Part shown: piece after piece, positions 14,808-63,017 of the stretch
Numbering within the stretch: position 1 is the first letter of the stretch
How the letters are laid out: the number at the start of each line of letters is the position of its first letter
From: Nemertoderma westbladi
Taxonomy: Eukaryota > Animalia > Xenacoelomorpha
Length of the DNA stretch: 64,000 nt
Assembly (NCBI GenBank): GCA_032718475.1
Contig: JAUCBJ010007025.1
Span: forward strand, 6,365 to 70,364
Direction of reading: 5' to 3'
The notes under the pieces: model-generated
What the model was told of the DNA's origin: nothing
Database searches by the model: none
What the model saw: the letters and a program-made list of their open reading frames with translations, nothing else
Position numbers and translations under genes: made by a program

Positions 14808-15350
14808 TTAAACGGGTTTATCATTGTCACCAATGTCCGCAGCAGGATCCGGAGTAGGGAACTTATCACCTCTCATGGAGTCACCACTGCCATTGCCTTC
14901 GAGAAGGCACAGCCTCGGGATAGGGCGTTGGTAGTGGCCCTTTGCCGTTCGTATCGTCACTGTCCTCGCAAGTCCATCCTTGCTTGGTGTTATCTCCATG
15001 ACTCGCGCCACAGGCCAGTAGACGCGGTCTTTAAGGTCTTCTTTAACAAGTACCATGTCGAAAACTGCGACGTTCCGGTATGTGTTATTCCACTTCCTCC
15101 TGGTCCGGAGGGTTATGAGGTATTCCTGGGCCCAGATTCTCCACCAATGCGCTGCCAGCGCTTGGGCCTTCTTCCAGTTCTGGTGTCTCGAGATATCATT
15201 GGGATCTGGGAACATTGCCTCCGGAAGGATGTTGGTCTTGGGTCTTCCGAGGAGATGGTTGGGTGTAAGGGGTTCTAGATCAGTTGGGTCATCGTGGATG
15301 GGAACGATTGGCCGGTTGTTCAAGGTGGCCGTAATTTCGCAGAATGTGGT
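14808..15350 (-). pseudogene. BEL/Pao integrase C-terminal region (5' truncated)
   Basis: LNNRPI..LEPLTPNHLL..WWRIWAQEYL..LRTRRKW..DMVLV..WPVARV..DGLARTV..RPIPRLCLLE. Confidence 0.92.
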
Positions 15351-15829
15351 GCTAAATAATGTGATAAATATTTTGCGATGGCAGAAATTATAAAGTGCTA
15401 ACTCGACAAGATTGTTACTTCTCATAAAAAGCAATGAATTAGTCCATTATGACTGCCATCATTTTCATACTAGGTTAGCACTACAGTATATTCAATTTAC
15501 TTTTAAAATATTATACTACTAACATTTACACAGCGCAGTTAGCACTATATTAACTTTACTATCAAAATGTTATACTGCTAACATTTACACACAAAGTTAG
15601 CACTACAGAGGATTCAGCCAATATAGTGATGCACACATGAGACGCTAGGGGGCGCATCGCAATTTACACATACACATGTCCGAGTTTGCAAAAACTTTAA
15701 AGTGCTAACAGCCAAACTGGAAGCAAATTTGGACCAATCATGGCTTTAGAATTCGTTTGGCAGGTTTGGTTAGCACTTTAAGTTAGCACTTTATCCTAAA
15801 AAGCTGCTGTGTAGTTAGACGTTTAGGGG

Positions 15830-25680: not shown

Positions 25681-25683
25681 GAG

Positions 25684-37375: not shown

Positions 37376-37449
37376 TAAATGGTTACATAATTTGTATTAT
37401 TGGGCCATGTAAAATGGAGTTGCGTTTGGGTATGAATTGTCTACATGTA

Positions 37450-41349: not shown

Positions 41350-42549
41350 TGTTCGCGCTTTCAGACCTTTGGCAGTTTAACCCGCCAAATTAGGATGTCT
41401 TTATATAATAAATCACTTTTAGCCTATGACAAGTATTTGATTCACTACACTAGTCGAAACCAATCTGTGCGCGATCATTCACCCGCTGGATATACCCGGG
41501 AGATTGGGTTCGACGGCTTAATCTTATTGCTATGTAAGCCTAATGTATTATTCGATTGACAGTATTATATAATCTCTGACAATATTATTCACCTTCAGGG
41601 AATATTAACAGTTCCTTTAGGACGTGGCGCTCTATCTATATAAACAGAGTTATGACTTGAACTACTCACAACGATATGGCTTAGTTATAATTCACATATA
41701 TGGCGCATTCTTTAGGAAATGCTTCGTTATCAGTCTCACTCATACACAATGCTGCACAATACTGCACACTAATCTGCCGATCTTCACTGATTTTATTCAC
41801 ATATAAAAGGAACACGGACCGACTCATGTAGGGTCTATCAAATAACATTAGATTCACTTCAAACCACTTTAACATAAGTCACAATCGTTATATATAACCT
41901 TTCTCTCTTACCTTCGGTATATCAAGAATATTGGGTTTCGGGGTTATTTATCGTTATTCCAAATATAATAATTCATCAACCATATTATGAAGGACCGACA
42001 GTAAATAGCAGTATAACAATATAAAGTATGCACAGTGTTTGATTAGGTATGGTATGTTATGATTTGAGTTGAGATAACGGATATATGTCCTTATAATTAA
42101 GCCTACTAGTGTTAGGCTAAAAACAGAACAGCACAAAATATTTCCAAGCCGCTCTCTCCTGGCTCAGGACAGAATGTAAACACTGCACATAAAGCATTAC
42201 GTGATTTCTAGGAAATTTCTCTACAAGAGCCATAAAAATGCTCTGATTGGCTGACTGAACTGAGAGACGCCGTAGAACAAAGAAAATCAACACGTATGAA
42301 TATCAGCTGTTAACCGTAGTCATAGTAACTACTGTTCAAGAGTAGCTATCACCCTTTGCGTCATGGAATTGCCATAGAATCATCAACTATGCCTTTCACA
42401 GTACACATACGGAGGAAATAGGTCTTAGATCCTCTAAAAAACACCGATACAGCAATAATACGGTCTCTTACACCTATTAAATCAACTACAGAGTATTTTA
42501 ATGTAAAAGATAATAAAAATAACGGGGCAATTCAGCAAAGGCTTTTACA
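41350..42549 (-). repeat. BEL 3' LTR (1200 bp)
   Basis: TGTAAAAGC...GCGCGAACA, preceded by a purine tract. Confidence 0.93.
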
Positions 42550-42627
42550 CCGCTCCCAGAAAATGGGATTTTCAGTCTAAAAAATATAAAAATCACAGTT
42601 TCTAAAACCTAAAGATACTCTAAACAG

Positions 42628-45600
42628 TTAGTCTTTCTTACGCGGACGGCGTTTACGCAGTTTCTTGAGGCTAGCAAGAGTCCTTTTCTCTTTGGGGCGA
42701 GCCACTTTACGAGGAGGGCTGTAGCTCCTAGGCGAAGGGTGCAATACAATTGCATCAGAAGGTGTAGGGTTACGATCGGTATACCCGCCGGTCGAAGTGC
42801 CTGGTTGATTAATATCAACCTCGGGGGAGCGAGGTCTAACGGCCTTTAGGGCGCGTCTCAGGACAGCAGCTCCTACGGGTCCTTGACGGGTCGTCTGGAC
42901 ACTAGCGGTGGGTGGACCGTGAGTGGTGAGGAACTTTCTCGGTTTAATGGTTCTCTCCAGCTCGCGTTCTCGGGTTCGATATTCATATGGTCGCCGAGAT
43001 ACTTCTTGTAGTTCAGGATGCGAGTTCACAAAGATGTCGCCATACTCGGGGTCCTGACGGATAAAATTGATCAGGTGATATGTGGTTATATCATTAGGGT
43101 TAACGTTTCTAAGGTATTTTCTGACAAACTTGGTGGAAATACACTCACCAACACGCTTCATTAACTCGTAACTTGGTACGCGTGTTTTCTGTTCAATCGA
43201 CGCGAATAGATAAGGATGGAACGCGTAAACTCCCTCGTAAGCTCGTCCAGGGTAATAGCGATGTCGAGATTCGCAATGTAAATCCGCGTTCGCTTCCCAA
43301 GCTCGGATGTATCGCAGGGTGATTATCTCGTCTACGCTCTCTAAATCGCGATTAAAGGGACAATTGTAACTTTCATGTCCTTTAAGTTGACAGTAGTGAC
43401 ATTGAGTCATAAATTGTGGGCAGACGGCAAAGATATGAGAGTTATTAAGTCTGCAATAAGCACAATATATTTCCATCATCGGTTGTTCGAGGAAATAGGA
43501 ACAAGGTACGCTCGAGTCTAGAGGGGTGAAGTGGTCTCTCGATGCGCATAATCGACAACGTTTTCGAGAAACGTAGTTGGCGTGTCGATAATCGTACGCT
43601 GTGAGACGTTGTGGACCTTGATACCATTCTATGACATAATCATTGTCACTGCTCCGGGAAGTTGTAGGCTGAATCGCTTCTGATTCCAAGCACACTGGTT
43701 CATCCTCCAGCTGTATAGACGAAGTGGGTGCGTCTGTCTCAGTAAGTGGATCTACTGTCTGTATTTCCACGATAGAATAACCTGTAGGTATTCGGGGTCT
43801 TTGTATAACAGATGAATGTAAGTTCTGTATACATACGTCTTGAAACACGGCAAATCCAGCGCTACTCAGTTTCTCCGCAGCTGAGTCTCTCAGACTGAGT
43901 TTGGTCAGCGCGCGGTCCTTGAACTGACTATCGACGTTACGGAACGGAGTCAGAAAGCGCCGGAAACATTCGAAACGTATGAACTTATTGTGTTCGTCTA
44001 ACTTGGCGAGTTTAGTTCCAAGTATTAATGGATGAGCGCGTATGGTACGACTGCACACATCGGCTAGCCAACCGGCAAGTGCTGCGTTTTCAAAGATCGT
44101 GTATATAGCTAAGGAAGGGCGAAGTGGAACACTCATAAAGCTATATACGGCACCAGGCGCAGTTAATGGTCCATCAAAATATAAACGAGAGTAATGATCT
44201 CCATATACTTGCTGGTAATTGATAGGATTTCCAACTTTGAAGTTCCATCCATATTCTTGAAAGGCAAGATGTCCGATGGATGTCCGTTGTACTTTAGTAA
44301 TGTCGCTGGGTGTATTGGCATACATAGTGCGAAAGAAACCTCGGCCTTCGGCCCAAGGAGCAATCAGCTGAGTATCAACGAAAGGGTATGGAATGTTTTC
44401 CATATTCCGGAAGTCGTTTTGGAGATCTCCATAAACAGCTGAGCCGATTTTTAGGATTCTTTCGTTAAACAACATTTCGAGCACAGGTTGGGGTAACATT
44501 GATCCATCGATACCCATGGCCGGTTTGCGCTCGGTGTCGGTGACGTAACGCTGCGCGAGCTCGAATTGTCCATGTCGAAGTTTCTTTTGTGTCTCCGTAA
44601 GGGTTTCAAAAGAATAATCAATCACGTCGGAACACGCTCGAGTGAATACGTGGGTAGAACCAGCGAGTCCTCGTATATGTATCATTCGCGTAGTTCCTAG
44701 TTCTCCCACCGGAACGCTACCTTCGTTGTCATAAGTAACAACGCCATACATCTCGATAACGTTAAGAGTCTCGTTCCATTCTTTAGTGGCGTTTTCGAGA
44801 GTCATTCCCACTGGATGCCACAAAGTAGCGCATTCGCTAGCATTGGGTAAATCTCTATACTTTAAGCATTGTGTAGTATAGGTTTCCACATCTCCATATC
44901 GTTTTATTCTTTCTTCCTCGAATAACACGTCAAGATTCCAGTGTACCAATCGAGTTTTAATGAATCCATCAAGATTGTACGGAGGTAATATTTCTTTCTC
45001 TATTCTGGAAATATTATACGGTTTTCGAAATGAGTTTAGTTTAACTAGCTGATCTAGATGTTTTTGTAGTTGTTCGAGTTCGACGAGGTCGAGAGGATTG
45101 ATCAATGGTAGAAACTTCAGACTATGCGTAGGATCTTCTGGTTTTACCATGTAATATTGCTTTAAATTGACGTAATAAGGATGATCCTTAATTCCATAAA
45201 ATGAGTCCGGCAAAGGTCTAGCGCGTATGTTAACATCGTGTACCATGCGACGGACAAGATCCGCTCTATTGTCCGGAGGCTCAACAAGTACACCATCGAC
45301 ACGAGCAGCCGCTATGGGTGGACGTTGTATCATAGGAGCGTCAGCAATGAGCTCGTGAGATCTGAGATCAGTATTAACCGGTTGAGGCTGTACCGTAGCA
45401 AAGAGCTTGTCTTTAAAATGAGGAACCATCGAGGGGTGGAGGATCGTTTTGGAATAGAGATCCGTCACGAGAATTTGAGTTTCTGGTTGGGCTAAAGCAG
45501 CTTCTTCCCTCTCAGTCAGCTCTATATGTCTCTCCTCGAGCTGATTTTCCTCAGCTTGTTGTTGCAAGCGCTCGTCCAGGAATTCCTGTAAGGAGTAGGT

Positions 45601-46881
45601 TCGTCCACGTTCGATGTCCTCCTCTAGATTCTGTATTTCTCTATCGAACTGGGGCAAAGCTAGTTCTTTCACCGCTTGGACTTGTTGTTGCAATTTACGT
45701 TTCTCCAAGCAATCGTAAGTTCCTTTTCCGATTTTCTGCCGAATAGCGTCCAATGCATTTCGTATCACGCTCTCTTCGACTTCTGTTACAGGTTGTATCG
45801 GAGGGAGGCCAGGACGGTTGTAGGGGTTAAACGGTGATATTAGATGACCGCGTCCTAGTCCAGCGAGGTAAGGTTGGCGAATATCTAACGAACCCACTAC
45901 CGGAGTGCCACCAATCAACTGTTCAGGTAACACTAGATCTTTGAACAGTGAGTATAGCTCGGGAGGATCCGTAATACTATTAGGATCGAGAGTTTGAGGT
46001 ATCACTTGGGAATGAGGAGGTCTGACCGAGTATTCCGGAACTCTGATCATGGGTTTGTTCAATGATCGTTTAAGGCGCGCGACCGTAGGTGATACGTCGA
46101 AAAGGTTTCGCTCGAAACTCCCATAAGTATATCGCGTAAAACTGTGTTTAGCGCAACGTCTCCGCGGATGTTTATGCCTTTCGATCTGCTGGTTAGGTCT
46201 AGGGCATTCGTCACAGTAATACCAAAGACGCATGTCTTGAAGGGGAAACGCGGGTGATCGCTCTCCAGTTTTACAATATTCCTCCATCTGTTCGAAGCTA
46301 TCTGGAACGACAGGGAGTGGTCGATCGGCGGTAAGATACATCATCGTAAAATAGAGCCGTTTGAGTTCCATCATAGGATCTGGATGTATACCTTGAGGAT
46401 ATCGAGTTTCGAGGTTTTGTTGACTAGCAACATTGAGATAGGTCTCTCTTAGGAATTCTAGATATTCGTTGAAGCTGCTACGTTTATCAGGTTCTTCAAC
46501 GTCTTCTCTTTCGAGTTTATTTCGAATAGAGTTCTCGTGTTCTATTCTCGATTTGTCGTTTCGACTCCGCTGGGTATGATATTTAAATAAAACCATTTCC
46601 CTTTCGGTGTCGACATCGTCGGTGTCGTGTAAATCAATAGGATGACCAGTAGTCAGGAAGTCCATATACGTACCATTACGATGCGTATAGCGAGCAGTGA
46701 ATTTTCTATAGTCCAATTCACGCGTAAGTTGCTCCTGGGACATTGGCAGTTCGATATAATGACCATCGTCCTCCGTAGTAGTTGGATCAGTGTCGCCGCG
46801 TATTAAGCTATCGACAAACGCTTGTAAAGGTAGAGTATATCTCTCCCTGATACCAAGATCATCTTCTATTAATTCAGTCAT
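42628..46881 (-). CDS. Accessory ORF3 (1417 aa): DEDD/DnaQ-like 3'-5' exonuclease-like domain, three CCHC zinc knuckles, basic C-terminal tail
   Basis: Intact 4.25-kb frame; VVTYDNEG (ExoI), LPQPVLEMLFNERILKIG..GDLQND (ExoII), FVDTQ, SIGHLA; CRLC..H..C, CAYC..H..CP, CHYCQLKGHESYNCP; KKLRKRRPRKKD. Confidence 0.85.
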   Translation of the reverse strand: MTELIEDDLGIRERYTLPLQAFVDSLIRGDTDPTTTEDDGHYIELPMSQEQLTRELDYRKFTARYTHRNGTYMDFLTTGHPIDLHDTDDVDTEREMVLFKYHTQRSRNDKSRIEHENSIRNKLEREDVEEPDKRSSFNEYLEFLRETYLNVASQQNLETRYPQGIHPDPMMELKRLYFTMMYLTADRPLPVVPDSFEQMEEYCKTGERSPAFPLQDMRLWYYCDECPRPNQQIERHKHPRRRCAKHSFTRYTYGSFERNLFDVSPTVARLKRSLNKPMIRVPEYSVRPPHSQVIPQTLDPNSITDPPELYSLFKDLVLPEQLIGGTPVVGSLDIRQPYLAGLGRGHLISPFNPYNRPGLPPIQPVTEVEESVIRNALDAIRQKIGKGTYDCLEKRKLQQQVQAVKELALPQFDREIQNLEEDIERGRTYSLQEFLDERLQQQAEENQLEERHIELTEREEAALAQPETQILVTDLYSKTILHPSMVPHFKDKLFATVQPQPVNTDLRSHELIADAPMIQRPPIAAARVDGVLVEPPDNRADLVRRMVHDVNIRARPLPDSFYGIKDHPYYVNLKQYYMVKPEDPTHSLKFLPLINPLDLVELEQLQKHLDQLVKLNSFRKPYNISRIEKEILPPYNLDGFIKTRLVHWNLDVLFEEERIKRYGDVETYTTQCLKYRDLPNASECATLWHPVGMTLENATKEWNETLNVIEMYGVVTYDNEGSVPVGELGTTRMIHIRGLAGSTHVFTRACSDVIDYSFETLTETQKKLRHGQFELAQRYVTDTERKPAMGIDGSMLPQPVLEMLFNERILKIGSAVYGDLQNDFRNMENIPYPFVDTQLIAPWAEGRGFFRTMYANTPSDITKVQRTSIGHLAFQEYGWNFKVGNPINYQQVYGDHYSRLYFDGPLTAPGAVYSFMSVPLRPSLAIYTIFENAALAGWLADVCSRTIRAHPLILGTKLAKLDEHNKFIRFECFRRFLTPFRNVDSQFKDRALTKLSLRDSAAEKLSSAGFAVFQDVCIQNLHSSVIQRPRIPTGYSIVEIQTVDPLTETDAPTSSIQLEDEPVCLESEAIQPTTSRSSDNDYVIEWYQGPQRLTAYDYRHANYVSRKRCRLCASRDHFTPLDSSVPCSYFLEQPMMEIYCAYCRLNNSHIFAVCPQFMTQCHYCQLKGHESYNCPFNRDLESVDEIITLRYIRAWEANADLHCESRHRYYPGRAYEGVYAFHPYLFASIEQKTRVPSYELMKRVGECISTKFVRKYLRNVNPNDITTYHLINFIRQDPEYGDIFVNSHPELQEVSRRPYEYRTRERELERTIKPRKFLTTHGPPTASVQTTRQGPVGAAVLRRALKAVRPRSPEVDINQPGTSTGGYTDRNPTPSDAIVLHPSPRSYSPPRKVARPKEKRTLASLKKLRKRRPRKKD

Positions 46882-47369
46882 ATCTGCTATACGAGTTCAC
46901 CAATATTATAATGAGTTTATATATTTATTAGGCGAGCGGGCGTCGCTGCCTACTTCTCCCTTGCCCCGGACAGTGTGATTCTCAGCGCCGATGTACCGCT
47001 GTCGCTGTACTTTCGCCAACGACGTAGCTGTACAACGACAACGATAACCGGCACAAGTCACTCCACTGTCCGTCCCAAAGGCTTAGATGTACTTCAGGTT
47101 TCCTTGGAGAGTTAGGTTACTTTCACGATTGCGACTAGCTACTGTAAACACACTTTAGCAGTAACATTCACCTATAAACTCACAAATACCACACAACTGG
47201 TCACAACGACGCACATTCGGGCCATTTGTCCGTTAGTCAATGCCTTCCAGAATGTCACTGTATTATTATGTATCCTTGGATACTAGCAGTGCACTGTTTA
47301 TTCCCTATGCTATTCAATGGGACAAGCTGTCTATTGTTCTTTTAACTCAATTCTAATTCTAGCGTGGTT

Positions 47370-47383
47370 GTTGCTATGGTGAC
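47370..47383 (-). promoter_or_regulatory. RFX X-box-like motif in the pol-ORF3 spacer
   Basis: GTCACCATAGCAAC about 490 bp upstream of the ORF3 ATG; identical at 1132-1145. Confidence 0.35.
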
Positions 47384-48527
47384 ATTATGTAAAGCTAGCA
47401 GTAGAATTAGGGTAATTCCAATGCATACAGATCTGGGATGTTATTTAATAGTAATTCTTTAATGGTCAATGTCCTGTTTTATACATGACTTTATGAATTT
47501 TATCGGCTATTGACTATGTTTGGGAGACTTTCTCACACTCATACGCATAATAAGATAAATCTCCGCTCCCTTGATCTATTAATTAATGGAATTTTGGGAA
47601 TGTTATAAATTGCGTAAAAATGGCAATTTATTAAATTCATTAAAAGGCATGAATTTAAATTTATTCCCTGAAATTTTATTATTTGATAATTAAATGGACA
47701 TATTTTGATTCTAGAACATGTCTGGGGACACAAGATCCTTAATTCTATGAAAATTGTCTTTTTAAGAATATCGGTAAATGCTACGATATCTTAATTGACT
47801 AGAATTGTTGAAGGATCTGAATTTTACAGAGTTGATTTATTAGATTTGCAAATATTAAATAATTAATATTTGAGATGGGCACCGATTTATTCCAGAACTT
47901 GTCTGGGGACGTTAACCACTGATTCTAAAATTTGTCTTTCAAGTATATCGGTGGGTGCCGCGATATCTTAATCGACTAGAATTACAGATGGTCAAAGGGT
48001 TTAACAGATTTATTTTGCGTTATACGCTACTGTTAAAGGGACATCACGCTACTATATGTATTATTTAATATACGGTATGAGAGCAATATCGCACGAAGCA
48101 ATGTCAGTGTGAAGAGGCAAGTCGTTTCCAAGGTCTACCCAGAGCTTGGTTTAGCCGAGACACGAGGATCTGAACTTTGCATTCCTAATACTCTGCCTAC
48201 CAATAATACTTGAATATAGTAGTGGCTTTATTGTACTTTAATAAGTACGGAGATTTCATCTTACTGTAGTTACGTATTTATAATGTAATACGGACAGTAA
48301 GGAAAGAGAAAAAGAATTGTTTCTCGCCGTCGCACTAAATATAATATAAGTAATTACGTACGCAATGAACACGAACATATTGCACTATTCTACTAAATAA
48401 TCGCTAAATAATATTCTACTAAATTAAATAAAACGATTATAATAAAATTACATAGTAATACATACATAAATATAAAAATAATAAAATAATATAAAATAAT
48501 AGAGTCACACGCCCACTCCGAACGATA

Positions 48528-51500
48528 TTAAGTTGGGGAGTCCCTAGATGTCGGTTGGATTAGGGAAGTGGTCGTGGGAAGAGTTTCTTGTCTTCCATAG
48601 TTTCCGGAGAGCTCTCTGTCTCTTTCCAGTAAACATAAACGACCCACTGGGCGATTGAGCTGTTGAGTCTCAAAGACTATCCCTGGTTTCTTAAAGTTAC
48701 GACGCATGACGACGAGCTCTACTGATCGCACCAAACCATCGCTCGAGATATGAGTCTCGATGATACGTCCTGTTTGCCATCGCTTACGTGGGAGATCGGG
48801 GTCCACAATAAGCACCATGTCTCCAGCGCTGACGTTTTCTTGCTGCGCAAACCACTTAGTTCGAAGTTGTAGAGTGGGCAGGTAATGTTTCTCGAAATGG
48901 TCAGCGAAACGACGGGATAGCAACTGCATAAGTTGCCAGGTTCGACGGCAGTACTCGTCTCCGTCTGTGATCTCCGATCGTGGGAGCATGGCTACGGGTT
49001 TTTTCAGTAGAAAGTGCGCGGGTGTTAGCGCTTCCAGGGAATCAGGACTTGAAGAGACTGGCATAAGCGGTCTTTCGTTGAGATAGGCGGCGATTTCCTC
49101 CATTAACGTCCGCAATAGTTCGTCGGTGAGATAAGCGCGACAAGGCACAATAAAGTGGAACGCAGTCTTCACGCTCCTAATCAATCTCTCCCAACTTCCT
49201 CCCCACCAAGGGGCGTCGGCGGCGTTGAAGGTCCAGCTAGACGCTGTTATCTTTAGCTGATCGTCCACCTGTCTTTTGTTCCAGTCCTTTACGTAAGCTT
49301 GAATTTCGTTGTTGGCGCCAATGAAGTTCGTTCCCTTATCCGATCTCATCGTGTTACTGGTTCCGAAACGAGCGATCTGTCGTCGTAAACTCAACACGAA
49401 GCTGTTGGTGGATAGATCGTTTACCATATCGAGATGGATAGCTCTACAAGTCATACAAACGAAGATGACACACCATCTCTTGACTATAGTCCGGGCACGA
49501 TATACTTCAATAGGGCCAAATAAATCCACACCGGTATTAGTAAAGGGTGGTTCATAGAAGCTTACTCTTTCCCTAGGTAATTCTGCCTCTCGCTGTGTTA
49601 AAGGCCTACTGAATGCTTTCCTACAGGGTATGCAGTTCCTAAGAACTTGGTTCAGAGCCCTACGGGGTTTATAAAAATAGTAGCGAGTTCGAATTTCACT
49701 CAGAACTCGTTCTCTACCAGCATGGTACAGTTTGCTATGAACATCTACAATCATCTTGATTTGTATGTCAAGATTTCTAATGAGTATGGGGAACTTAGTG
49801 TCAAAGGATAATGGGGCGTTGGTAAGCCTGCCTCCAACACGTATTAACCCATCTATCATGGTACTAGAGAAGCGATCCCTTAAGCGCATCTGTGGATTTC
49901 TTAACAACAGGAAATACTTATCGGAATCCTCATAACATTGTAGAAGTCTCAGCATCTGTTTGTTGGTTTCATCATGCTCCTGGTAACTGATCTTCTCCTT
50001 TAGAAACCTGTCGGATATCTTGTATTGGGGAAGGTCTTTAACAACATGGACTCGTGCAGATGTTGATGGAGCATCATCACTATGGGTCTTTGTCCCGGAG
50101 TAATGATGATGAAAACATCGTTTTAAATAGGTGACGGCTTTGCAGAGCCGATTCCAGGAGCTGTAGTGACATATCGCTCTCTGCAAGAGGGGTGAGAGTC
50201 CTTGTGCGATATCTGGTATTCCAGATTTCCAATCCTTGTCACGGATTTCCAAGACTTCTTTAGTCGTGGCGGTGGGTTTCTGATCCAAAGCATCATCTTC
50301 GGAAGTAAATAATACAGATAGATCAACCGCAGGTTTAAACAACTTCGATTTACTCGCTCGAATTTTAGGTTTAACTTTCTCCGCTCCCTTGGCCTGTCTG
50401 ATCTCTGCTGTTGTGAGATGGGGAGGCCATTCTTCTTCTTCTTTGTAGAGAAAGTCGGGTCCACCTAACCATTCGGGAGTATTTACCAATTCCTTTGGAG
50501 TCGCTCCTCGGGAAGCGATGTCTGCTGGATTAATCGTTCCGGGGCAATGTCTCCATTGGTCCATCGTCGTGCGACTAAGTATGATGGCTACCCTGTTGGT
50601 AACGAAGACGCTGAACTGACAGACTTCATTGGTTATATACTCTAACACGAGTAAAGCGTCGGTCCAATAGACAGTTTTCTCTAATGGATAGTCAATCTGT
50701 TCTGTTACATTCCGGCCGATGGCTGTAGCGTATAGAGCCACTTTTAACTCCGCTCGAGGAACTTTCAACTTGTTGTTGATTAATGCCTTAGAAGTAACCA
50801 AGGCGACTTTGATTCCATCCGGAGTTTCCACTCTTAGATAGGCTACTATACCTATTTCCATATCGCTGGCGTCTCCAAACACATGGAGTTGATAGGAATA
50901 CGTAGGGAGAACATGACCAAAATATGAACGGGAAATTATAAAATCCTCGATAGCTGGCAGAGAATCTTCCCATTTCATCCACTTCTTCAATAATTCTCCC
51001 TTAAGTGGATCGTCCCATGAGTGGTTTTCAAGCCACATTTGTTGTACCAAACTACGAGCAATCAATATAACTGGGCTAATAAATCCCAATGGATCGAAAT
51101 AAGTGCTCAGTATACTTAAGCAAATCCGTTTGGTTCGAACTGGATTATCTCGCTGTTTTAGCTGGAAAAACAGGATATCTCGCTCTGTGTCCCATTTCAA
51201 GCCGAGTGTCTTGGTTTCTGGTAGATCATCTTTGATCAAATCGAGATCTTTCGCTCCTCGATCTTCCGCAGGGATCGACTCCAGAAACTCACGGGAGTTG
51301 CTGGTGAATTTCGTTAATCAAAACCCACCTCTTTTTAAGCACTCTACCGTTCCTTTAGCTACCTCAATGGCTTCCTCAACTGATGGAAGGGACTTCAGAT
51401 TGTCGTCCATGTATATGTCTCTCTTGATGTTGTCGATCACTTCCTTAGAGAAGGCCTCTCGGTTGTCTTCTGCAGTGGTACGCACTACCGAACAGGCGTT

Positions 51501-54500
51501 GGAAGGGCTTGAGATTATCCCAAAGGCCTGGATGGTCATCCAGTACTCCACCGGTTTCTGGTTGAGGTCTCCTTCGGGCCACCACAGAAATCGTAGACTA
51601 TCTCGATCCCTATCTAACACCTTGACTTGTAAGAACATGCCTTCTATATCGGAGGCGAAAGCAATCGAATATTGTCTCAATCTTAAAAGAATTCCCAACA
51701 AAGATTGAAGCAAGTTGGGTCCGGGTAACAATTCAGAGTTAAGGGATTGACCCATGTAAAGAGCGGAGCCATCAAACACTACTCTCACTTCATGTGGTTT
51801 ACCGGGTTTAGGAACGTAATGGTGAGTTAAGTAATACGTTCTTTCAGTCACAGGTGTTTCTTCCGGTACTCTCTCCGCGTATCCCTTACTAATAAATTTC
51901 TCCAGCTGTGTTTGATACATTGCTTTAGCTGAAGAATTAGCCGTAAGGCGTCGATGGAGTTGCGCGATTCTTTTTTCCGCCAAGGGTCTGTTATTGATGA
52001 ACTTCGGTTCTCTCTTGCGGAAAGGTAGACCGACTTCATACCTACCTTGATCTTTGAGGAAACGTGTAGTTGTCTCTTGGATCTGCTTGGCCCTTTCCTC
52101 TTCCACCGACAAGGCTTTATCGTAGGAATTGGGCTCTACCGCCTCTTGCGTAAAGAATCGTACGGCATGTTCATCTCGAGTCTTGGCATTACAACGCTCA
52201 ATGACATCATTTAGCTCGTCGTTATAAGCTTCTCGTTCAGATGGATAAAGAAGTTGACATAAGTTCACTTGGTTTTGCCAAGCCTCGTTTTCCTTAAAGA
52301 GGTCGATGGTATTCTCCTCATCAAAAAGCTGGTGCACGTCGTCGTTATCTGAGGAGTATGGGGTTCCCTCAGTTAAATCGTCTCCCTCACTAGTATCATC
52401 TTCCCATTCACTCACCTGGTAGACGCGCTCTTGCGGTAGTCTTTCTCTGAGTGTTCTACGGGAAGGGCCAGTAAAGTACCAACCTACTCTAGTTCTTACC
52501 GCATAGGTCTGTAGTGGCTGCGTTTGAGCAGGCCGTTTCTCTAATGTCTCCAGCGCCTCATGCGCGTTTTGGCCGATGAGTATTTGCACTCCAGGATAAT
52601 CAGTCTGGAATCGAGGTATGTTAAGATGTTGGATACTCTCATCCTCGTCCCAATTATAAAGGTCTGCTTGAGTAGTAGCGAAGTTCTTTATAGCTACCAT
52701 TTTCACTGACCTTATGCTATGTTCTCCTAGTTCGTCCTGGGGGGTGGACAACGCTCCTACATAATAATCCACTGTTATTGTAGATTTCCAAACTTGCATA
52801 ATTCCTGACATGTTTAGCTTAGTTCGGAACTTGGGTTGTCCATCAAATATGTCTTCGGCTAGTTCTTTATCAATGAATGTTCCTGTACTACCGGAGTCAA
52901 GGAGGGCGTTCACTACATAACTCCTCTTAGGTCCGTGAACCCTTACTTGCACCACAGGAAACTCTCGGATCCCTACATTGGAAGATGGCTCTTTCCAAGA
53001 TGGTTGTCGCTCAGAAGTAGTTAGAGTGAAGTCGTTGTCTGTATCCTTTTCATATGTGAGTGCTCGATACACTGCGGTATTTATCATGTAACAGGATTCG
53101 TTTTCGTCGGAGAACTCGTCTGTATAGAATCCTTCCATCTCAGATTGATCAGTGTCGTTCACATCACTGAATTGGACATGTAGCTCGGAATCACTTACCT
53201 GATTCGGACTATTTCGCTCGAATTCAGCATGCAACAAGATATGATGTTTCGCACCACACTTTGCACACCTTATGTCAGAGAAACAGGTACGCCGTTGGTG
53301 TCCTTGTCTGAGGCAATTATAACATAACCGCTTATCCCACATGACTTCGCGTCTCTCCGTTAATGACTTCTTCAGGAATTCATCACACATATTCAAACGG
53401 TGGGTCCCGTCACACAGCGCACATTTCGGTTTGATGTTACTTACCTTATTTTGAGTCACATTGTGTACACTTGCCTTTTCTTCGGGCTTTCTCACCGGAA
53501 TTCTCTTGGGAGACGTGGGAGGAGTTTTTCTTACCTGTTCTCTCCTGTCATTTGCTCGAGACTTGAATTTACTTACCTGATCTTTAGGCATTTTATTGAC
53601 ATAATAAGATCTATCAGTGTCTTTCCCGCTATCTTCTCCTTGAGAAGTCTGGCTTTCGCCGTCGTCTGTATAACACACTGGTGTTACCTTTCTCCTAGAG
53701 ACGGGTTTTTCACTTACCTTGTTTTCCAGTGTCTTCTCTCTGGACAGTTTCAGGAGCTGTAATTTCACTTCTCCATCTAGGAATGACATGAGATCAGCCA
53801 TGGTAGGGTCTCGTCGTTGTTGTTCCATCATATATAACACTTTCTTATCCCAGCGTGTACCTACTCCACCCTTCGGTAAAGTAGAAGCCACTGCTCTAAT
53901 AACCATAGCATTCTGATACTCCTGAGACTTACCTAGCCAATCTAATTGTCTACAGATCTCCTGAATCTCATCGGAAAACTCGATAATTCCGCTGCTAATA
54001 AACTTTCGGGGCGCTACCAACTTTGCATACAAATACCCAGCGATGTTATTCCTATTACCATACCTGATGTTTAGTGTATCCCAAACTTGTCTTAATCCGT
54101 CTGGATGTCCAATAAACTTTAACGCCATTAACTTGGGAGATCCTTCCAAGCACTCGATGAGGTATCTAAGTTTTTCTCCATTAGATAGTACAGAGTTCTG
54201 TATGTTATCTTTGTAATATTCATTAAAAGGTAACCATTTCATCTCATCTCCATTGAACTTGACGATCTCTCCCACCTTTACCGCTTGCCGGGCTTCGGTT
54301 CTAGCCATTTGACGCGTAAAACTTTCTTGGGCCATCGTGTTATTTAATATCGAGTTATCGGTATATAAATTTCTCGGATTATGATCAGTTCTATAGGGAA
54401 TGTCATTATCAACAGGTCTATAATTACCCTTAATAGGGTTCACTATAGGAGTTTCTACTTCGCTAGCAGTATAGATGCGTGTAGGCTCCACACCTTGCGC

Positions 54501-56735
54501 ATGCGATACTTCAGACCTAACAGGTTGACACATTGTTACAGAGGGTGGTGGTATACCCCTTTGAGTATTTACTAATTTATCGCGTTCTAGCGCGATACTT
54601 TGCTGCACTTCTTGCAACTCTAGCCTACTTTCCCTTACTGTGCCCTTGAATTGCTGGACAGTCTCCTGCATCTGCCCGAGCAGGAGATCCATCCCCCGCC
54701 GTCTCTCATCCACCCATTCGACCGCCGAAGCGGGAGTCGCCAACGTTGTAGCGGGCGGACGAGGGACAACGGGCGACAAATTATGAATATTTCGCTCGGG
54801 GTCCAGGACCTGAACTGTCTCCTGGGCAGTTCTACTGGGCACAGGTAGCTTAGTGCTATGTAGAGGGAATTTAGAGGTAGCTTCAGGGAGCACAGGTGTA
54901 TCTATCACCGAAGGGGTGATTTCAAAAACAGGCCTAATTATTTCAGGCTCATCTACTATAGTAGGGAGTCTTTCTATTTTAATTATTTGGTCTGTGGGTT
55001 CTGTACTACCTAAGCTGGTGTCATTTAGTTGCCTTCTAACAGCTGGAGGCAAATCAGGCAATTTCTGACGGTGGAATGTTCTTTTACGTGTGCTTAGACG
55101 AGATCTATTTCCTTTGCCTTCAGTATCGGTGGTATCGCCTTCCTCCGATGATGTATATCCCTGTCTTTTGGGAGTAGATCGATTCATCATCTGCATATTG
55201 CTAGCTGTTAACTGTTTATTTATGCAGTCTTGATTCTCCTGAATGTTTTCCAATTCTAATTGGGTGATTTCTTCAGTCGCTCTCCGTTCTGCTTCTGCCA
55301 CTGCCTTTGCCGCCTTTCTTTCGGCTTCGGCCGCTTTTGCTTCTGCCGCTGCCGCTGCCACCTTTGCCTCTGCCGCTGCCTCTGCCGCCTTTGCCTCTGC
55401 CGCTGCCTCTGCCGCCTTTCTTTCAGCTTCGGCCGCTTTTGCTTCTGCCGCTGCCGCTGCCGCCTTTGCCTCTGCCGCTGCCTCTGCCGCCTTTGCCTCT
55501 GCCGCTGCCTCTGCCGCTGCCGCTTTTCTTTCTGCTTCTGCAGCTACCACTGCTGCTTTCTTTCTGTCTTCTATACGTTTTTTCTTTACTTGCTCCTCTT
55601 GGACTCGTGTCAGGCGGAGTTGTTCATCAAATTTAGCCTGATTCGCAGCCCTCATTTCCACATCGATGGCATCCAACACAAGCTTGGTTCCTTCACTATT
55701 AGGGCTAAGTCCGTCTAACCTTCTCCTCAACTCGTCATCACCTAAAAAACGTTGATAGTCTGACAGATAGATGTCAATGGCATCCCTCTTATGCGGCTTC
55801 TCTGCCGTCGCTTCACTTTCCACTTGGGAAAAAGTAGCGTCTGTTGATTCTCCATGGGTTGAGCGCTCCTCCAGCTGAGCTTTCCACTGAGCTGTTCCTT
55901 GAACTTGGCGACTCACCCGTTGAAACCAAGTCTTTACGGCAACTTGCAACGACGTGTCTTGTCTTCTTTTAGAAGCCTCTTCAAAGGCTGATAATATTAG
56001 CCTGATTCGCAGAATTCTTTCTCTAACTTGATAAAGCAGTTGTCCCTGCTCTTGAGGTCCTTGAGGTTGTTGTAACAGTTGTTTTTCTACTCGCTCCATA
56101 GAGCTGAAGAATCCCTGTGCGTATCCGGCTGCGGACCTCTTCCACACAGCTGGATCGATGGTTTCCTTGGCTACTCCCATCCGGTGTATGTCTTCCCAGG
56201 CAGCTTCTGATAAATCAAACGGGAGTCCGGGTCCAGGGAAGTTCCATTGCGACTCGACAATAGACTTCAGTTCTTCCCTCGTGTATCCCGCATAACTATC
56301 TTTAGTTGATCGTTGACTTCTCGCCCAATCGATCTGGTGTTCTTCCACCGCGATCAATATCCTAGTGAGTACGGCTGCAGGAAGGATGAGAAGGGGATCC
56401 GAATAAACCGCATCCGTCATCTTTGCTCCGCGCTCGGGTGTCAGCTCTACAGTATACTCACTACTGGAGCTGTTGGGCCGTTGAGAAATAAGTTCTTGGC
56501 TCGCGGGTTGTTGCTGTTCTGCTGCTTCTTGGTCCCGCTTGACCTGAGCTCGAGTGCCTATGATAGACCTACGATGTTGGACCAGCCTAGGGTCTGATAT
56601 TACTACAGGAGGGATGACCTTCCTCACAGTAGGGGGTGAACTGAACTTAGGTCTAGACAGTTCTACACCTCTATCTGAGTCACAGATAGTTACATCTAAT
56701 AAACTGTCTGACAGGTTCTGCTTAGTATCAGACAT
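48528..56735 (-). CDS. BEL/Pao gag-pol polyprotein (Gag, PR, RT, RNase H, IN) in one frame, with one internal TGA at 51318-51320
   Basis: Triple knuckle; ALLDSGS; RVVFDGS, SDIEGMFLQV, YMDD; KTLGLKW, HVFGDAS, VPRAEL, NPADIASRG; H..HAG..CxxC, GVDLFGP, SDKGTNF, WERLIRSVK; the two listed ORFs are in frame (GGF*LTKF). Confidence 0.95.
55260..55560 (-). repeat. Coding repeat for an Ala/Glu/Lys helical segment in the Gag N-terminal extension
   Basis: AAEAKAAEAAAEAKAAAAAAEAKAAEAERK units. Confidence 0.9.
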
Positions 56736-58993
56736 GTTTATGTGTACAGTTGAATGCCTACTGCTATATTACAGTCTAAGCAAGTCTAGTAATTCAGTAT
56801 TAACTGCTAGCCTAGTAATTAATTACCTATACTGCTACTCAGTGTAGCGTGATATATATATTATATTAGAATACCGGTATGCTTATAGTATATATAACTA
56901 TATAAGTATTATTACAGACTAGGTTTATCACAGAATACCGGTATAATTTTAGCACAAATATATATAAATATATAATAGGCCTATCGGGAATACCGGTATA
57001 CAGCTTACAGTTTATAGTATATATAATTCTGGACTAGAATTAATTACAAGTACCGGTATAATTTCAGCCGAAACTTATAGAAATAAAGATAATAGGCCTA
57101 TCGTAAATACCGGTATATCAATTATTTTAAATAATTGAATTTCTGAATTTTAGGGTTACTTGGTTACTTTACTTACTTTATTACCGCTATTTGAGCAGTA
57201 GTCCAACTGATATTGAGACCTAATGGTTGTATGGTAGGCCTACTATTTATAAATCGTTAGATTTGATTTATAATATATATATACCCGTTTTAATGGGTTT
57301 TGTCAATGTTTGAAATAAATGTTATTATTTCTGGGGAGTAATCACTACACAAAGCGGTGCGCTTTCAGTGAAGTGTTACTTATAGGACACTAAAACAAAT
57401 AATGCTAATTTACCTAAGTTACTTAATACTACAAATTACGTACAATTCGGGTGAGATTACAATCTCTAAATAAACACAAAAATTTACAAAAAACACAAAA
57501 TACGAATTTTCAGGGTAATTTTACAAGAAGTCTACAAACCAGCCTAACAAAGGGTTAGAAATCTGGTTATTACAACGGACAGGATACTGCGGTATTTGAA
57601 AATAATACGTAGTAGTAAATACACTGCGTTGTCCAGATAGGAAAATACCACCGCCTGACGACCTATAGCCGTATCGCTATAGGTACTACGTTATGTATCA
57701 CGGAGTGTTCCTACCTAGAAGTTAATAGAGCTAATCGAACGTGCCTATCAACCACTTTACAACACAAATATAATGCCTACACTAATTACTTTCGGAAAGC
57801 ACTGTACACTAAACCCTAAATTAGGTACGAGTACTTGTACAATATATAATCAGTAGTTAAATATACTTGAACAGCTAAAAGAACCACGGCATCTGCTGGA
57901 GTGACCGGTGCACAAAATCACCAGTCTTTACCTACGCCAAGCAGCCCGTGTAGTACCGGGGTTAATTTAACTATAGCGGTATGTATAACAAACACAATTA
58001 TTGTAGGAACAAACTTGGGGAATGAATGTTGCGAATAATCGCATAAACTCTGAATAATAAATATTACGCTACGCGTACAAACCACTCAAACAAAATGCAG
58101 ACCAAATACTGACAGACTACTATCAAGCCTAAATAAACTACAGGACATGCAGACTCCGAAATGATTAGGTAGTATGCGTTCTAACCCAGTAGTACAACTT
58201 ATTCTTTAGATGGGGGTTTACCTTACAGCTTTGGCTGCCCCTACTTCCTAACCGTTCTTTATCGGACAGAGGCTCTACACACACTGCAATCCGTTCAGAC
58301 CTAATAACAGCCAGACAACTATCCAGCCTACAAATTATCTAAATAAATATTATACGCTACCTGTACAGACTACACAAACAAAGTACAGACTAAACGATGG
58401 CAGACTACTCTCAAGCCTAAATAAACTACAGGACATGCAGACTCCGAAATGATTAGGTAGTATGCGTTCTAACCCAGTAGTACGACTTATTCTTTAGTTG
58501 GGGGTTTACCTTACAGCTTTGGCTGCCCCTACTTCCTAACCGTTCTTTATCGGACAGGTGATCTACATACACTGCAATCCGTTCAGACTTAACAGCAATC
58601 AGACAACAGTTCAACCTACAAATTGTCTGTACAATCTGATCAGGCTTACACGCCTTCTGTTCAATACTAGCCTACAAACAAATAAAACTGACAGAAATAA
58701 GTAAGCTCTAAAAGAAACAAGGGGTGTACAGTCCCTAATCTCTTAAACAGCCTACCGGTATACAATAATCAAATCGAATAATACTAATGTACTTATACGG
58801 GAAGTACCGGTTAGGACAGTTAGGCCTACGAACCTACAGAAGTACCGGTTCTGGCAGTTGGACCTACGGGCCTACAGCAGTACCGGTTCTGGCAGTTGGG
58901 CCTACTGACCTACAGATGTACCGTTCAGGTTTACCGGTTGACCGGTACTTTCAACTTTATTGCTTACTGCAATAAAGAAGCTATATCCGTTAT

Positions 58994-60173
58994 TGTTCGC
59001 GCTTTCAGACCTTTGGCAGTTTAACCCGCCAAATTAGGATGTCTTCTAGATAATAAATCGCTTTAGCCTCTAACAAGTATTTGATTCACTACACTAGTTG
59101 AAACCAATCTGTGCGCGATCATTCACCCGTTGGATATACCCGGGAGATTGACTTCGAGGGCTTAATCGTATTGCTATGTAAGCCTAATGTATTATTCGAC
59201 TGACAGTATTATATAATCTCTGACAATATTATTCACCTTCGGGGAATATTAACAGTTCCTTTAGGACATGGCGCTCTATCTATATAAACAGAGTTATGAC
59301 TTAAACTACTCACAACGATATGGCTTAGTTACAATTCACATATATGGCTCATTCTTTAGGAAATGCTTCGTTATCAGTCTCACTCATACACAATGCTGCA
59401 CAATACTGCACACTAATCTGCCGATCTTCACTGATTTTAGTCACATATAAAAGGAACACAGACCGACTCATGTAGGGTCTATCAAATAACATTAGATTCA
59501 CTTCAAACCACTTTAACATAAGTCGCAATCGTTATATTCTCTCTTACCTTCGGTATATCAAGAATATTGGGTTTCGGGGTTATTTCTCGTTATCCCAAAT
59601 ATAATAATTCATCAACAAATATAATGAATAACCGACAGCAAAGCAGTAATGTTAAGTTAAGTTGCACAGTATGGGCCAGTTAACCAGTGATAACCAGTGA
59701 TAACGGATATATGTCCTTATAATTAAGCCTACTAGTGTTAGGCTAAAGCAGAAAAGCACAAAATATTCCAAAGCCGCTCTCTCCTGGCTCAGGACAGAAT
59801 GTAAACACTGCCCATACAGCATTGCGTGATTTCTAGGAAATTTCTGTACAAGAACAGTAAAAACGCTCTGATTGGTTGACTGAACTGAGAGATGCCGTAG
59901 AACAAAGAAAGTCGACACGTATGAATATCAGCTGTTAACCGTCGTCATAGTAACTACTGTTCAAGAGTAGCTATCCCCTTTTGTGTCACGGAATTGCCAT
60001 AGAATCATCAACTATGCCTTCCACAGTACACATACGGAAGAAATAGCTCTTAGATCCTCTAAAAACACCGATACAGCAATAATACGGCCTCTTACGCCTA
60101 TTAAACCAACTACAGAGTATTTTACGGGAAAAATAAGGAAAAATAACCGGGCAATTCAGCAAAAGCTTTTACA
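58994..60173 (-). repeat. BEL 5' LTR (1180 bp)
   Basis: Direct repeat of 41350-42549 with visible substitutions and indels. Confidence 0.93.
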
Positions 60174-63017
60174 CTGTATCCGGACCTGATCGCCAACAGC
60201 AAGTGGTTTCAGATCTCTCGCAGATCGGTTGTATTGTTCCGCATGTAGTCCGTGCAGATCCGCGGCTTTTTGATCCGTGCGCTTAACATCTTCCTGCCAC
60301 AATTGTTTAAAGTTAGAGTGGTGGCAAGGTAGTCTGGTTCTTAGTCGTCGGCCATATACGATCTCGTTCGGGGAGCGCCCATTGGACCGTGGAGTATTCC
60401 GGTACTCCAGAAGTCCCTCTTGGAACTTTTCGGAATGAATACTCGGGTTCTGGAGTTTTCGTAGTAGCATTTTTTATCTGCTTTACGCTTGACTCCGCAT
60501 GTCCGTTACTACTGGGAAAGTGCGGGGTGCTTGGTTGCCATCTAACTCCCCAATGCTTGAGGAACGTTTTAAATGTTTCTGCGGCAAACTGTGGGCCGCC
60601 GTCTGTGCGCAGAATATTAGGCACGCCTGTGTCGGTGAACCATTTCCTTATTACATTAACACACTGCTGGCTAGATGGATCAGCGTTCCACTCCGCCACT
60701 ATAGGGAAGCCGGAGTAACGATCTGTATATACCAGGAAGTGTTTTCCACCAAGTTCGAATAAATCAAAGGAAGCGGATTGGAATGCGCGGTTGGGTACAG
60801 GGTCTGTCTGTAATGTCTCCTTGGGGAGGCTGGGTAGTACTCCCTGACAGGTGTCACATTGGCCGACCATGCGTTCAATATCGGCATTGATGCCAGGCCA
60901 ATAGACGCTACTTCGCGCGCGCTGTTTCGTCCTAGTGACTCCGAGGTGAGGGGTGTGTAGTTGTTTAAGAACTTCGCTCCTCTGTGACCTCGGTATTACC
61001 AGGCGGTCCCCAAACAATACCAGGTCATTGTTGTATAATGATAAATTGTCACTGATCGACCGGTATTCTTGTACCGAAGGTGGTGCGGTGTGGACTTTGC
61101 GGAAGTCGTCGCGAATATTTTCAATGAGTTGTTGGAATTCTGGATCGACGCGTGCTGCAGCTCGTAGTCCTTCGATCAATTCATCTCCACTGTCGGAGTC
61201 TGATCCGTGAAGGTGCTGGTTGATCGCGTTAATCACTAATGGTGTAACATCATTTGTGTCATCTGGTGCCGGGTCAACTGGGAAGCGACTAAGTGCATCT
61301 GCAATGCGATGTTGTTTTCCCTTTTGCCATATTAGTTCAAATTGGTATCTTGATTGTAAATCTGCCTTGATCTTTTGTATATTGCGATTTTCAATCTGAT
61401 CGAGGTTGTATGAATTGAAAATTGCCAACAGAGGACGGTGATCGGTGACAACGGTGAATTTCGGTAAGCCAGCAAGATATAGTCGGCACTTCGAGATGGC
61501 ATAATGAATTGCGATACTCTCCAACTCTATTACCGCATACCGTGTTTCAGGGTCTGTAAGGAATCGGCTCCCACATGCGACTATTTTCCAGTCGTTACCA
61601 TGTAGTTGTAGGAGGTCGAATCCAAAGCCATATAGCCTGCTGGCATCTGTTTCAAGGCGGGTTTCTCGGGTTATGTCGAAGGGCGCTAGTACGGGGGGGC
61701 TAATCAGCGCTTTTTTAACTTTGGTAAATGCAGCATCGTGATTGGCTGTCCATACGAACGCGTTTCGTGCCTTGATTGTCTCATTTTTATAAGCTGGTAT
61801 CGGTCCACCATTATGTTATGTTGCGCCCGAATATAGACATGTATGCGATCTAAAATATCGTCAACGGATAGTCCGGTGTCTGGGTCCACATCCATTAGAT
61901 GTCGTAAATCGATTAACATTTCATTACTGCAGTATGTATAAAAGGTGGCGACTTGTTCCTCACGGGGCTTATCCTGGAGATGTGTAACTGTGCTGTAATT
62001 TCTCCAAGCAGTACGCCACTGTTGGAAGGTAGAATATTTGGTTCCCCTTTCCAGTTTATCTGGCATCCGCACCTGAAGTCGGACTGTAGGACTCTCGGAG
62101 GCGCGTCTGTCAGCTTGTCCCACTGTGTGGGGACCGTGTTCGCGAATTAGGAGTAGTAGTTCTTCACGCTCAGCGCGGCGGCGGAGTTTGCGGTCAGCCT
62201 GCCGACGGAGTTCATCCGCCTCCCGTGCGAGGTGTAATTCCTCGCGTTCGGCTTGACGCTGCATCTCCATATGTTGGAGTAATTGTACGAGATCCGAGTT
62301 TGGGTTGGGTTTAACCTCGTCCGTTGCGCTGTTGTCGTCACCTTCTTTCAAGTAACGGTGTAGTAAACCTCGAAGACGCAGGGATGAGTCTTTCGCTGAG
62401 GTTCGTATTCCTGCATTGGCACAGTGCTGAAAGAGGGTCGCTCTGTCCATGTTCTCGATATCCTCCACATTAAGTTCTAGTGTATCGTCTAGGTTCGCCA
62501 TTGCCGGATCGACCAGAGACGGGATTATACCGTCAACTTTTAGGGCAGCTAAGCCGTAGTGCTTGTCTCCCCCTTAAGGTGGCGGGTTTGACTCGGCGTC
62601 GCCGTAGAGAGGGAGGCACGAGGTGATATTCTCGCCCTTCGTTAAAGGTAGAACGCCAGGCTGTTCCTCCGGAATTTGGAAGGCTAGGACCTGCCCCCCT
62701 ACACTGGGAATGATGCCCGTATGGCGTATCTACCGGGGTCCTTAACTTGCATTCTTATCTATAATAATGCTGTATTCAAATAGGCCTATAGGGTAGGTAA
62801 GTCCGGATTACTGCGCCATGGTCTGTATAGAAAGCTGATATATAGTGCAGTCAATACAGCAATAAGTATAATAATAGAGATAACCACGGTACTGCTGTAC
62901 AAACATAAATCTTACACCGACACCATAATATAAGTAAAGGGGCGAGCCATATATTACAATAGTACCATCCTACATGGATACACCACTTTGTGTGCCTATA
63001 TTTTAACTCACTCAGCA
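60174..63017 (-). mobile_element. Mag-like Gypsy element: putative 5' LTR (about 62819-63017), PBS, gag N-half fused by deletion to RNase H-integrase; cut by the BEL LTR in the IN tail
   Basis: PBS TGGCGCAGT at 62810-62818; gag 61704-62501; ETDAS, VTDHRPL, IADALSR, HLG..VYWPG..CDTC, TDGGPQF, SNGHAE; PR and RT missing. Confidence 0.85.

Follow-up and report, generated by a model that had tools for sequence, protein, structure and literature searches.

A 64-kb stretch of the Nemertoderma westbladi genome (contig JAUCBJ010007025.1, positions 6,365 to 70,364; the window, whose own numbering is used throughout) contains a BEL/Pao retrotransposon, here termed family A, with an intact gene of 1417 codons in the position of env. 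This third open reading frame (ORF), ORF3, likely carries a domain of the DEDDy exonuclease family with a retained active site, as predicted from profile comparisons and conserved positions. Judged by sequence comparison, ORF3 is element-borne, with its 5' part under purifying selection, and is an accessory gene common to at least two distant BEL/Pao families. We propose that ORF3 encodes a separately expressed, zinc knuckle-guided 3'-5' exoribonuclease that would serve the element, with silencing RNAs as its substrate. We give this full reading a probability of about 0.4.

Layout of the element

The long terminal repeats (LTRs) of family A were located by self-comparison of the 64-kb window and delimit an element of 18,825 nt on the minus strand.

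41350..42550, minus: 3' LTR, 1201 nt, AATAAA at 41797
42551..42560 (about), minus: short polypurine tract (PPT), between ORF3 and the 3' LTR
42628..46881, minus: ORF3, 1417 aa, ATG start, no internal stop, intronless
46882..48527, minus: pol-ORF3 spacer, 1.65 kb, 19 ATGs
48528..56735, minus: gag-pol, one frame of 2735 codons broken by an in-frame stop
56736..58993, minus: 5' leader, 2.26 kb, with tandem duplications of 288 nt and 119 nt
58994..60174, minus: 5' LTR, 1181 nt, TG...CA ends

ORF3 lies on the pol strand, past the pol stop (48528) and ahead of the PPT and 3' LTR, which is the env position. An intact same-strand ORF between pol and the PPT, inside the LTRs, had been claimed by the original prediction, and its coordinates (42628-46881) are exact. 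The remaining five frames across ORF3 contain 58-98 stops each, and the chance of an open frame of this length at this composition is about 1e-33. The claim that the product is not an env protein also holds. The best 19-residue hydropathy window reaches 1.19 and the N-terminus has no hydrophobic or signal-like stretch; a hydropathy scan of the full protein gave no transmembrane helix and no signal peptide.

The gag-pol frame encodes, in order, a DUF1759 Gag, knuckles, a protease (PR, DSG), a reverse transcriptase (RT, YMDD at 51413), RNase H (RH)/Peptidase_A17, an integrase (IN) and DUF5641. The PR-RT-RH-IN arrangement is Pao-type by motif order, and the element is assigned to BEL/Pao on its Pfam domains (DUF1759, Peptidase_A17 at E 4.7e-35, Integrase_H2C2 and DUF5641). 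Within the unusually long Gag N-terminus there is a tandem repeat rich in Ala, Glu and Lys (55269-55570). A purine tract followed by TG lies directly after the pol stop. Such a pair could mark where an old LTR began; the reading was rejected because no partner for it exists upstream of gag.

This copy is not competent. An in-frame stop (51318-51320) interrupts pol in the RT, 31 codons past YMDD. The two LTRs, both with TG...CA ends, are identical at 1100 of 1166 aligned positions (5.9% difference, Kimura two-parameter distance 0.059). No target-site duplication was found at the flanks of the element, which differ and come from different gypsy regions; the copy is therefore probably a recombinant of two insertions.

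A predicted exonuclease domain with a retained active site

The features of the ORF3 protein are as follows.

44047..44769, minus: DEDDy/RNase D-like exonuclease domain, residues about 705-945, predicted by profile tests
44730 (D718) and 44724 (E720), minus: ExoI
44427 (D819), minus: ExoII, followed by DTQ at residues 836-838
44103 (Y927) and 44091 (E931), minus: ExoIII
43360..43557, minus: three zinc-knuckle-like motifs, residues 1109-1174, with a conserved tail behind them to about residue 1250
42631..42666, minus: basic C-terminal tail, resembling a nuclear localisation signal (NLS) in sequence

Motifs of the DEDDy/RNase D-like superfamily had been read in ORF3, and they sit where they were placed: YDNEG at 44733-44719, LPQPVLEMLFNERILKIG at 44496-44443, GD at 44430-44425 and FVDTQ at 44382-44368. 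Membership of the superfamily, the central claim of the original prediction, is borne out by several profile tests that agree with each other; the signals are weak and lie above shuffled controls. An Atlas search with residues 640-1000 returned PF01612 clusters at 0.92-0.93 (25 of the 30 matches in the set). NCBIfam TIGR01388, the RNase D model, matched ORF3 at E 0.0033, far under its cut-off.

Direct comparison covered bacterial RNase D and PolA sequences only. A hidden Markov model built from 17 RNase D/PolA exonuclease domains gave ORF3 5.9 bits and P0002, a metagenomic homolog described below, 12.1 bits; the maxima of 500 shuffles each were 3.5 and 1.0. Aligning a profile of the ORF3 group with RNase D (hhalign) gave a probability of 89% and a score of 46.4, the maximum of 60 column shuffles being 20.7, and placed D718/E720 on the DTE motif of RNase D and D819 on ExoII. 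In the reverse direction, a three-member ORF3 profile was run on the 17 bacterial domains, 8 of which outscored all of 1020 shuffles. A four-row profile run against the PDB had RNase D (1yt3, E 2.3) as its sole match.

The three-member profile favours RNase D (top rows 13.4-7.2 bits) over E. coli PolA (2.2 bits), and this bears on a further possible role. DnaQ domains proofread for DNA polymerases. By analogy, the ORF3 nuclease might proofread or repair complementary DNA (cDNA) ends for a genome of unusual length (about 18 kb of RNA). The DEDDy enzymes do include DNA proofreading domains, according to the accessible passages of PMC5408684, and at 18,825 nt the element far exceeds the 4.2-10 kb of its family (PMC8742986). 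We consider this role quite improbable, as the best matches are to RNase D, much of the extra length is ORF3 with its own spacer, and there is no physical link between ORF3 and the RT.

The active site is best judged from the three known members of the group, ORF3, P0002 and a broken homolog in a second element family, which align at 23-25% identity. Residues D718, E720, L796, P797, K811, G813, D819, D823, D836-T837-Q838, P919 and E931, among others, are invariant in all three. The acidic set D718, E720, D819 and E931 reads D-E-D-E, with Glu in place of the last Asp of the family in all three members. As these four residues are invariant at such low identity they are likely to be metal-binding and catalytic. 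The ExoIII spacing, PL-x6-Y-x3-acid, in which Y927 and E931 follow a conserved Pro, is as in RNase D, and a position matrix ranks the ExoIII site of P0002 first of 630. The ExoI register was ambiguous from two sequences and was settled only by the third homolog, from family B. An alternative register at D755, offered by two alignments, was rejected because it has no Glu and because the DNEG of the D718 register recurs in the third homolog.

The same positions bear on whether the domain is an enzyme at all. ORF3 could instead be a non-catalytic RNA-binding adaptor of the EXD1, Maelstrom or Egalitarian kind, which would carry or shield element RNA or sequester host silencing factors. This would fit the non-canonical ExoIII (Glu for Asp in 3/3 members and Asn for Tyr in family B) and the make-up of the protein, which is large and has knuckles, a basic tail and a region predicted to be coiled. 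EXD1 and Maelstrom are themselves inactive DEDD derivatives (PMC5408684, accessible passages). The adaptor seems distinctly unlikely to us, since all four metal-ligand positions are acidic and invariant at 23-25% identity and dead enzymes seldom keep them.

Outside the nuclease the picture is mixed. Three tandem CCHC knuckles had been predicted; three motifs are present at 43557-43360, of which only the third has the canonical CX2CX4HX4C form, the other two being CX2CX4HX9C and CX2CX5HX4C. The predicted basic NLS-like tail was found at 42666-42631. For the predicted coiled coil (residues about 375-465), what stands is a crude heptad score together with helices of a low-confidence model. A CxxC...CxxH motif in the N-terminal half (residues 223-246, window 46143-46215) is a possible extra zinc site.

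ORF3 in a second, distant BEL/Pao family

The single match to ORF3 among 1.84 billion representative proteins (E 9.4e-8) is P0002, a metagenomic protein of 648 aa from an ENA assembly. It keeps the order of ORF3 (exonuclease, three knuckles, tail) and its knuckles resemble the HIV nucleocapsid (E 1e-4). No homolog of ORF3 residues 560-1290 was found among 4602 candidates, an Atlas search with residues 130-700 gave no match, and searches with P0002 and with an ORF3-P0002 pair profile returned P0002 itself only. Searches of metagenome contigs, viral contigs and plasmids found nothing. These blanks say little, because the collections searched hold little animal repeat DNA.

A further homolog lies within the window. 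A tblastn search with ORF3 matched 12963-12790, inside the 3' remnant of a different BEL/Pao element, here family B.

14808..15446, minus: family B integrase C-terminus, DUF5641 E 1.8e-27, in a 5'-truncated remnant
11098..13561, minus: family B ORF3 homolog with stops and frameshifts; the exonuclease part spans about 13330-12450, the knuckles with the tail about 11630-11100
7536..8729, minus: LTR of 1194 nt shared by the family B remnant and another family A copy, with a purine tract ahead of it at 8730-8740
1..7535, minus: second family A copy, internally deleted, with the 5' part of ORF3 (ATG at 638) running off the window edge

The family B and family A integrases are only 32% identical (191 columns). 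The 3' order in family B is nevertheless integrase, a 1.25-kb spacer, the broken ORF3 homolog, a purine tract and an LTR. By tblastn the family B homolog is reached from ORF3 at E 1.3e-4 and from P0002 at 6e-8 and 1e-7. The tail taken on its own gave no match in a pairwise test, its homology resting on the family B tblastn result, and the N-terminal parts of the family A and family B proteins gave no significant match. Since a distantly related element has a broken version in the same place, ORF3 is likely to be an accessory gene of long standing in the BEL/Pao group.

The LTR at 7536-8729 belongs to two elements, closing the family B remnant (as its 3' LTR) and opening the second family A copy (as its 5' LTR). 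Positions 7536-8367 are family A-like and positions 8368-8729 are unlike family A past the first 13 nt, so this LTR is probably chimeric, and its dissimilar outer 360 nt suggest recombination between distant families. Between the family B ORF3 homolog and its purine tract there is a 118-codon frame (8980-9336, minus) that includes a hydrophobic segment (19-residue hydropathy 2.09), possibly a small fourth gene of family B.

Selection on ORF3 and state of the copies

In the second family A copy the first 273 ORF3 codons survive, interrupted by two deletions and four stops. Compared across both family A copies, this 5' part of ORF3 has dN 0.147 and dS 0.527, a dN/dS of 0.28 (bootstrap 0.17-0.43) over 206 comparable codons. 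A ratio near 1 among copies had been named as the outcome that would count against the original prediction, and the value on the ORF3 5' part is well away from it. For gag/protease dN/dS is 0.18 over 778 codons. In four public sequencing runs a 19.1-kb stretch was covered in 30, 30, 30 and 29 of 30 bins; none of the best 12 of 264 indel rows from these runs falls in ORF3 or gag-pol.

These results bear on whether ORF3 is a captured host gene or a passenger with no role for the element. That ORF3 is broken both in the second family A copy and in family B would suit a passenger, as would the lack of relatives found beyond one protein. The gene nevertheless keeps its location in two families that share 32% integrase identity, has a dN/dS of 0.28, keeps 1417 intact intronless codons and is covered in all four runs. 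The passenger explanation is thus largely refuted and we regard it as very improbable.

The pol-ORF3 spacer shows a separate pattern. Positions 47040-48440 and 800-2190 are 94-100% identical between the family A copies, with flanking coding parts at 66-89%. Either the copies are mosaics or the spacer would be under constraint.

Predicted expression of ORF3

Translation of ORF3 from genomic RNA is unlikely because 19 ATGs and 13 kb of RNA lie upstream, which points to a short subgenomic mRNA. A TATA-like motif starts at 46923, 42 nt before the ORF3 ATG, next to a GC/CpG-rich patch in the spacer (about 46940-47040). The motif is at exactly -42 in all three ORF3 starts in the window, those of both family A copies and of family B (ATG at 13561). 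Per spacer, the background chance that a 6-nt window contains a TATA-like site is about 0.02-0.04. An internal promoter is thus the likeliest predicted route to ORF3 expression. Downstream of the predicted RNA start the LTR contains a consensus-like splice donor (59547, minus). Splicing from this donor to one of two candidate acceptors (47930 and 47673) is a candidate alternative route to an ORF3 mRNA.

A self-priming signature

The region directly after the 5' LTR does not resemble a tRNA primer site.

58982..58993, minus: primer-binding site position, directly after the 5' LTR, no TGG, not tRNA-like
59700..59711, minus: 12-nt LTR segment, the predicted self-primer, fully complementary to the primer site

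The segment at 59700-59711 would be the 5' end of the RNA, a start site that we infer from the sequence; its counterpart in the 3' LTR is 42074-42085. In the second family A copy the primer site at 7524-7535 pairs with LTR positions 8278-8289. The duplex has 12/12 pairs in both copies, and the two differences between the sites are matched by two compensatory changes in the LTRs. Simulated LTRs matched the primer site by chance in 16 of 20000 cases, and predicted pair probabilities are 0.78-1.0 and 0.61-0.88. The TGG of a tRNA-type primer site is absent after the LTR in both family A copies, a tRNA gene search found none, and Rfam gave no match at E 0.1 or better across window 41000-60500.

The duplex raises the possibility that the nuclease matures the element's own RNA, trimming the self-primer 3' end to the 12-bp duplex or processing other 3' ends in reverse transcription. 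The element that encodes the nuclease has this duplex at the exact LTR edge, supported by the compensatory changes; the knuckles of P0002 are nucleocapsid-like; and 3'-end processing of element RNA has been proposed for similar genes in the accessible passages of PMC5408684. The corresponding primer of Tf1, however, is made by RNase H alone (PMC7175516, accessible passages). ORF3 is also unfused to Gag or Pol, and would need its own route into the particle, and the primer site of family B lies outside the window. We think RNA maturation an unlikely role.

Proposed function

We propose that ORF3 acts on silencing RNA. The proposal starts from an intact ORF in the env position, synteny in two families and purifying selection on the 5' part. 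The protein is predicted to contain a DnaQ-like domain in which D718, E720, D819 and E931 would bind metal and catalyse hydrolysis. A short subgenomic mRNA would begin just past the TATA-like motif at -42. The nucleocapsid-like knuckles may then bind single-stranded RNA and pass its 3' ends to the nuclease. In the last and least certain step the substrate would be silencing RNA, with small RNAs, or cut RNA fragments used by the host, being trimmed or destroyed. The DEDDy family includes the small-RNA trimmers Mut-7/Nibbler. This choice of substrate is suggested by that kinship together with the (predicted) separate expression of a protein that is unfused to Gag or Pol. Mut-7 is also named in the accessible passages of PMC5408684.

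Several points weigh against this proposal. All family matches are weak and under curated cut-offs, Pfam found no domain on ORF3, and a single-sequence PDB search gave nothing relevant. Two ORF3-group structure predictions yielded no fold (pLDDT 32.3 and 31.0); fold searches with the second model returned helix matches only and are uninformative because both predictions failed. By position matrix alone neither the ExoI nor the ExoIII site of ORF3 is among the four best of about 1400 positions. Pairwise alignment of ORF3 and P0002 at ExoI is not significant. ExoIII is YxxxE in two of three members and NxxxE in the broken family B homolog, the strict YxxxD being absent, and hhalign left it unaligned because of an insertion. 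About half of the protein (residues 1-700) has no domain assignment, and the dN/dS covers only the first 273 codons, with the nuclease outside. In some contigs from the reads the sequence is joined over the loss of large ORF3 segments, evidence of deleted forms, and the second family A copy is also ORF3-deleted. Rotifer elements with DEDDy ORF3s show no clear link to copy number in the accessible passages of PMC5408684.

If the proposal is correct, ORF3 would give an animal transposon its own nuclease against small-RNA defence, and would address the question of whether animal retrotransposons encode active counter-measures to silencing by PIWI-interacting RNAs (piRNAs). ORF3 is an intact, selected and assayable candidate with mapped predicted catalytic positions; the rotifer DEDDy ORF3s have been untested since 2017. 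The gene extends nuclease cargo to the third major LTR lineage and is a clade-level gene, no one-off capture. The departure in size and priming from the description by the ICTV (the international body for virus taxonomy) offers a test of tRNA-independent priming in BEL/Pao. A broader reading, possible if doubtful, is that these elements form an undescribed old clade of giant (about 19 kb) self-priming BEL/Pao elements, whose active D-E-D-E exonuclease-knuckle protein, expressed from its own promoter, would disarm the piRNA pathway or finish the primer.

Other features of the window

The remaining sequence includes parts of other elements and repeats.

30382-34527, minus: element of gypsy type in which a SCAN domain (E 9.6e-14) lies upstream of the protease, RT and RNase H; identical direct repeats of 208 nt occur at 29594 and 34782
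22573-23916, plus: part of a non-LTR-type RT, together with DUF6451
9742-10451, 14112-14537, 25671-25904, 35058-35249 and 37179-37377: short tandem arrays in or between element remnants

Comparison with known systems

The closest precedent is in bdelloid rotifers, where Juno1/2, Vesta2/5 and Athena/Terminon carry DEDDy RNase D-like ORF3s downstream of pol (Rodriguez et al. 2017, PMC5408684). The comparison is with the accessible passages of that paper and by description only. It states that no DEDDy exonuclease had been reported in retrotransposons before 2017, and the roles it proposes are 3'-end processing of element RNA or a mut-7-like function. Its finding is repeated in reviews (PMC5718144, PMC6431247, PMC6338049, accessible passages). 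The rotifer and N. westbladi proteins are alike in being stand-alone, in env position and RNase D-like, in keeping altered acidic residues, in lacking a transmembrane domain and in their proposed roles. The novelty that the original prediction attached to the gene was thus overrated, as DEDDy ORF3s with the same hypotheses were already on record in rotifer gypsy-type elements. ExoIII, the family B homolog, the TATA-like motif and the self-priming site are additions to that prediction. The rotifer and N. westbladi proteins differ in that the rotifer hosts are gypsy-type with a DEED motif, whereas here the host is BEL/Pao and the set is D-E-D-E. In the passages accessible, no triple knuckle or conserved tail is reported for the rotifer proteins, two families have Cys-His-Cys and coiled coils are lacking.

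With the cellular RNase D/WRN-exo/EXD2/Mut-7 group (PF01612, TIGR01388) ORF3 shares the ExoI DxE, the LP..L..LL....KIG....D segment, DTQ and the P-x7-Y-x3-acid spacing. It differs in having Glu as the last acid and insertions after ExoI and before ExoIII, and no HRDC was detected.

A nematode BEL element (Cer13 or Cer7) is said to have been described with an exonuclease domain in about 2000-2001; if so, a 3'-5' exonuclease domain in BEL/Pao has already been published. Our literature search did not confirm this. Nor was it confirmed in the accessible passages of PMC11662393 or PMC9094657; in the latter Cer13 carries env, unlike the family A element. The word exonuclease is absent from the main text of a BEL/Pao survey (PMC3118150), and neither self-priming nor an exonuclease is reported for BEL/Pao in passages of PMC3601003, PMC13524379 and PMC6317226. 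A literature search that did not cover most subscription papers, Repbase and supplements yielded no report of an exonuclease ORF3 in BEL/Pao, and none of self-priming in that group.

The self-priming geometry is that of the Tf1/sushi group, in which an LTR segment is complementary to the site right after the 5' LTR (11 nt in Tf1, 12 here). In the accessible passages of PMC7175516 and PMC6317226 this mode is described for chromoviruses of the gypsy type and suggested for some copia elements of plants; BEL/Pao is not included. The ICTV describes Belpaoviridae (Semotivirus) as 4.2-10 kb long with an 18-nt tRNA-Arg or tRNA-Gly primer site (PMC8742986). Family A shares with them LTRs, gag-pol in PR-RT-RH-IN order, Pao-type Pfam domains, a PPT and the optional third gene, and departs in its 18.8 kb, its non-env third gene and its 12-nt self-complementary primer site. 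New here are the BEL/Pao host and the exonuclease-triple-knuckle-tail architecture with its D-E-D-E site, along with the common position of the TATA-like motif, the element's size and its self-priming signature.

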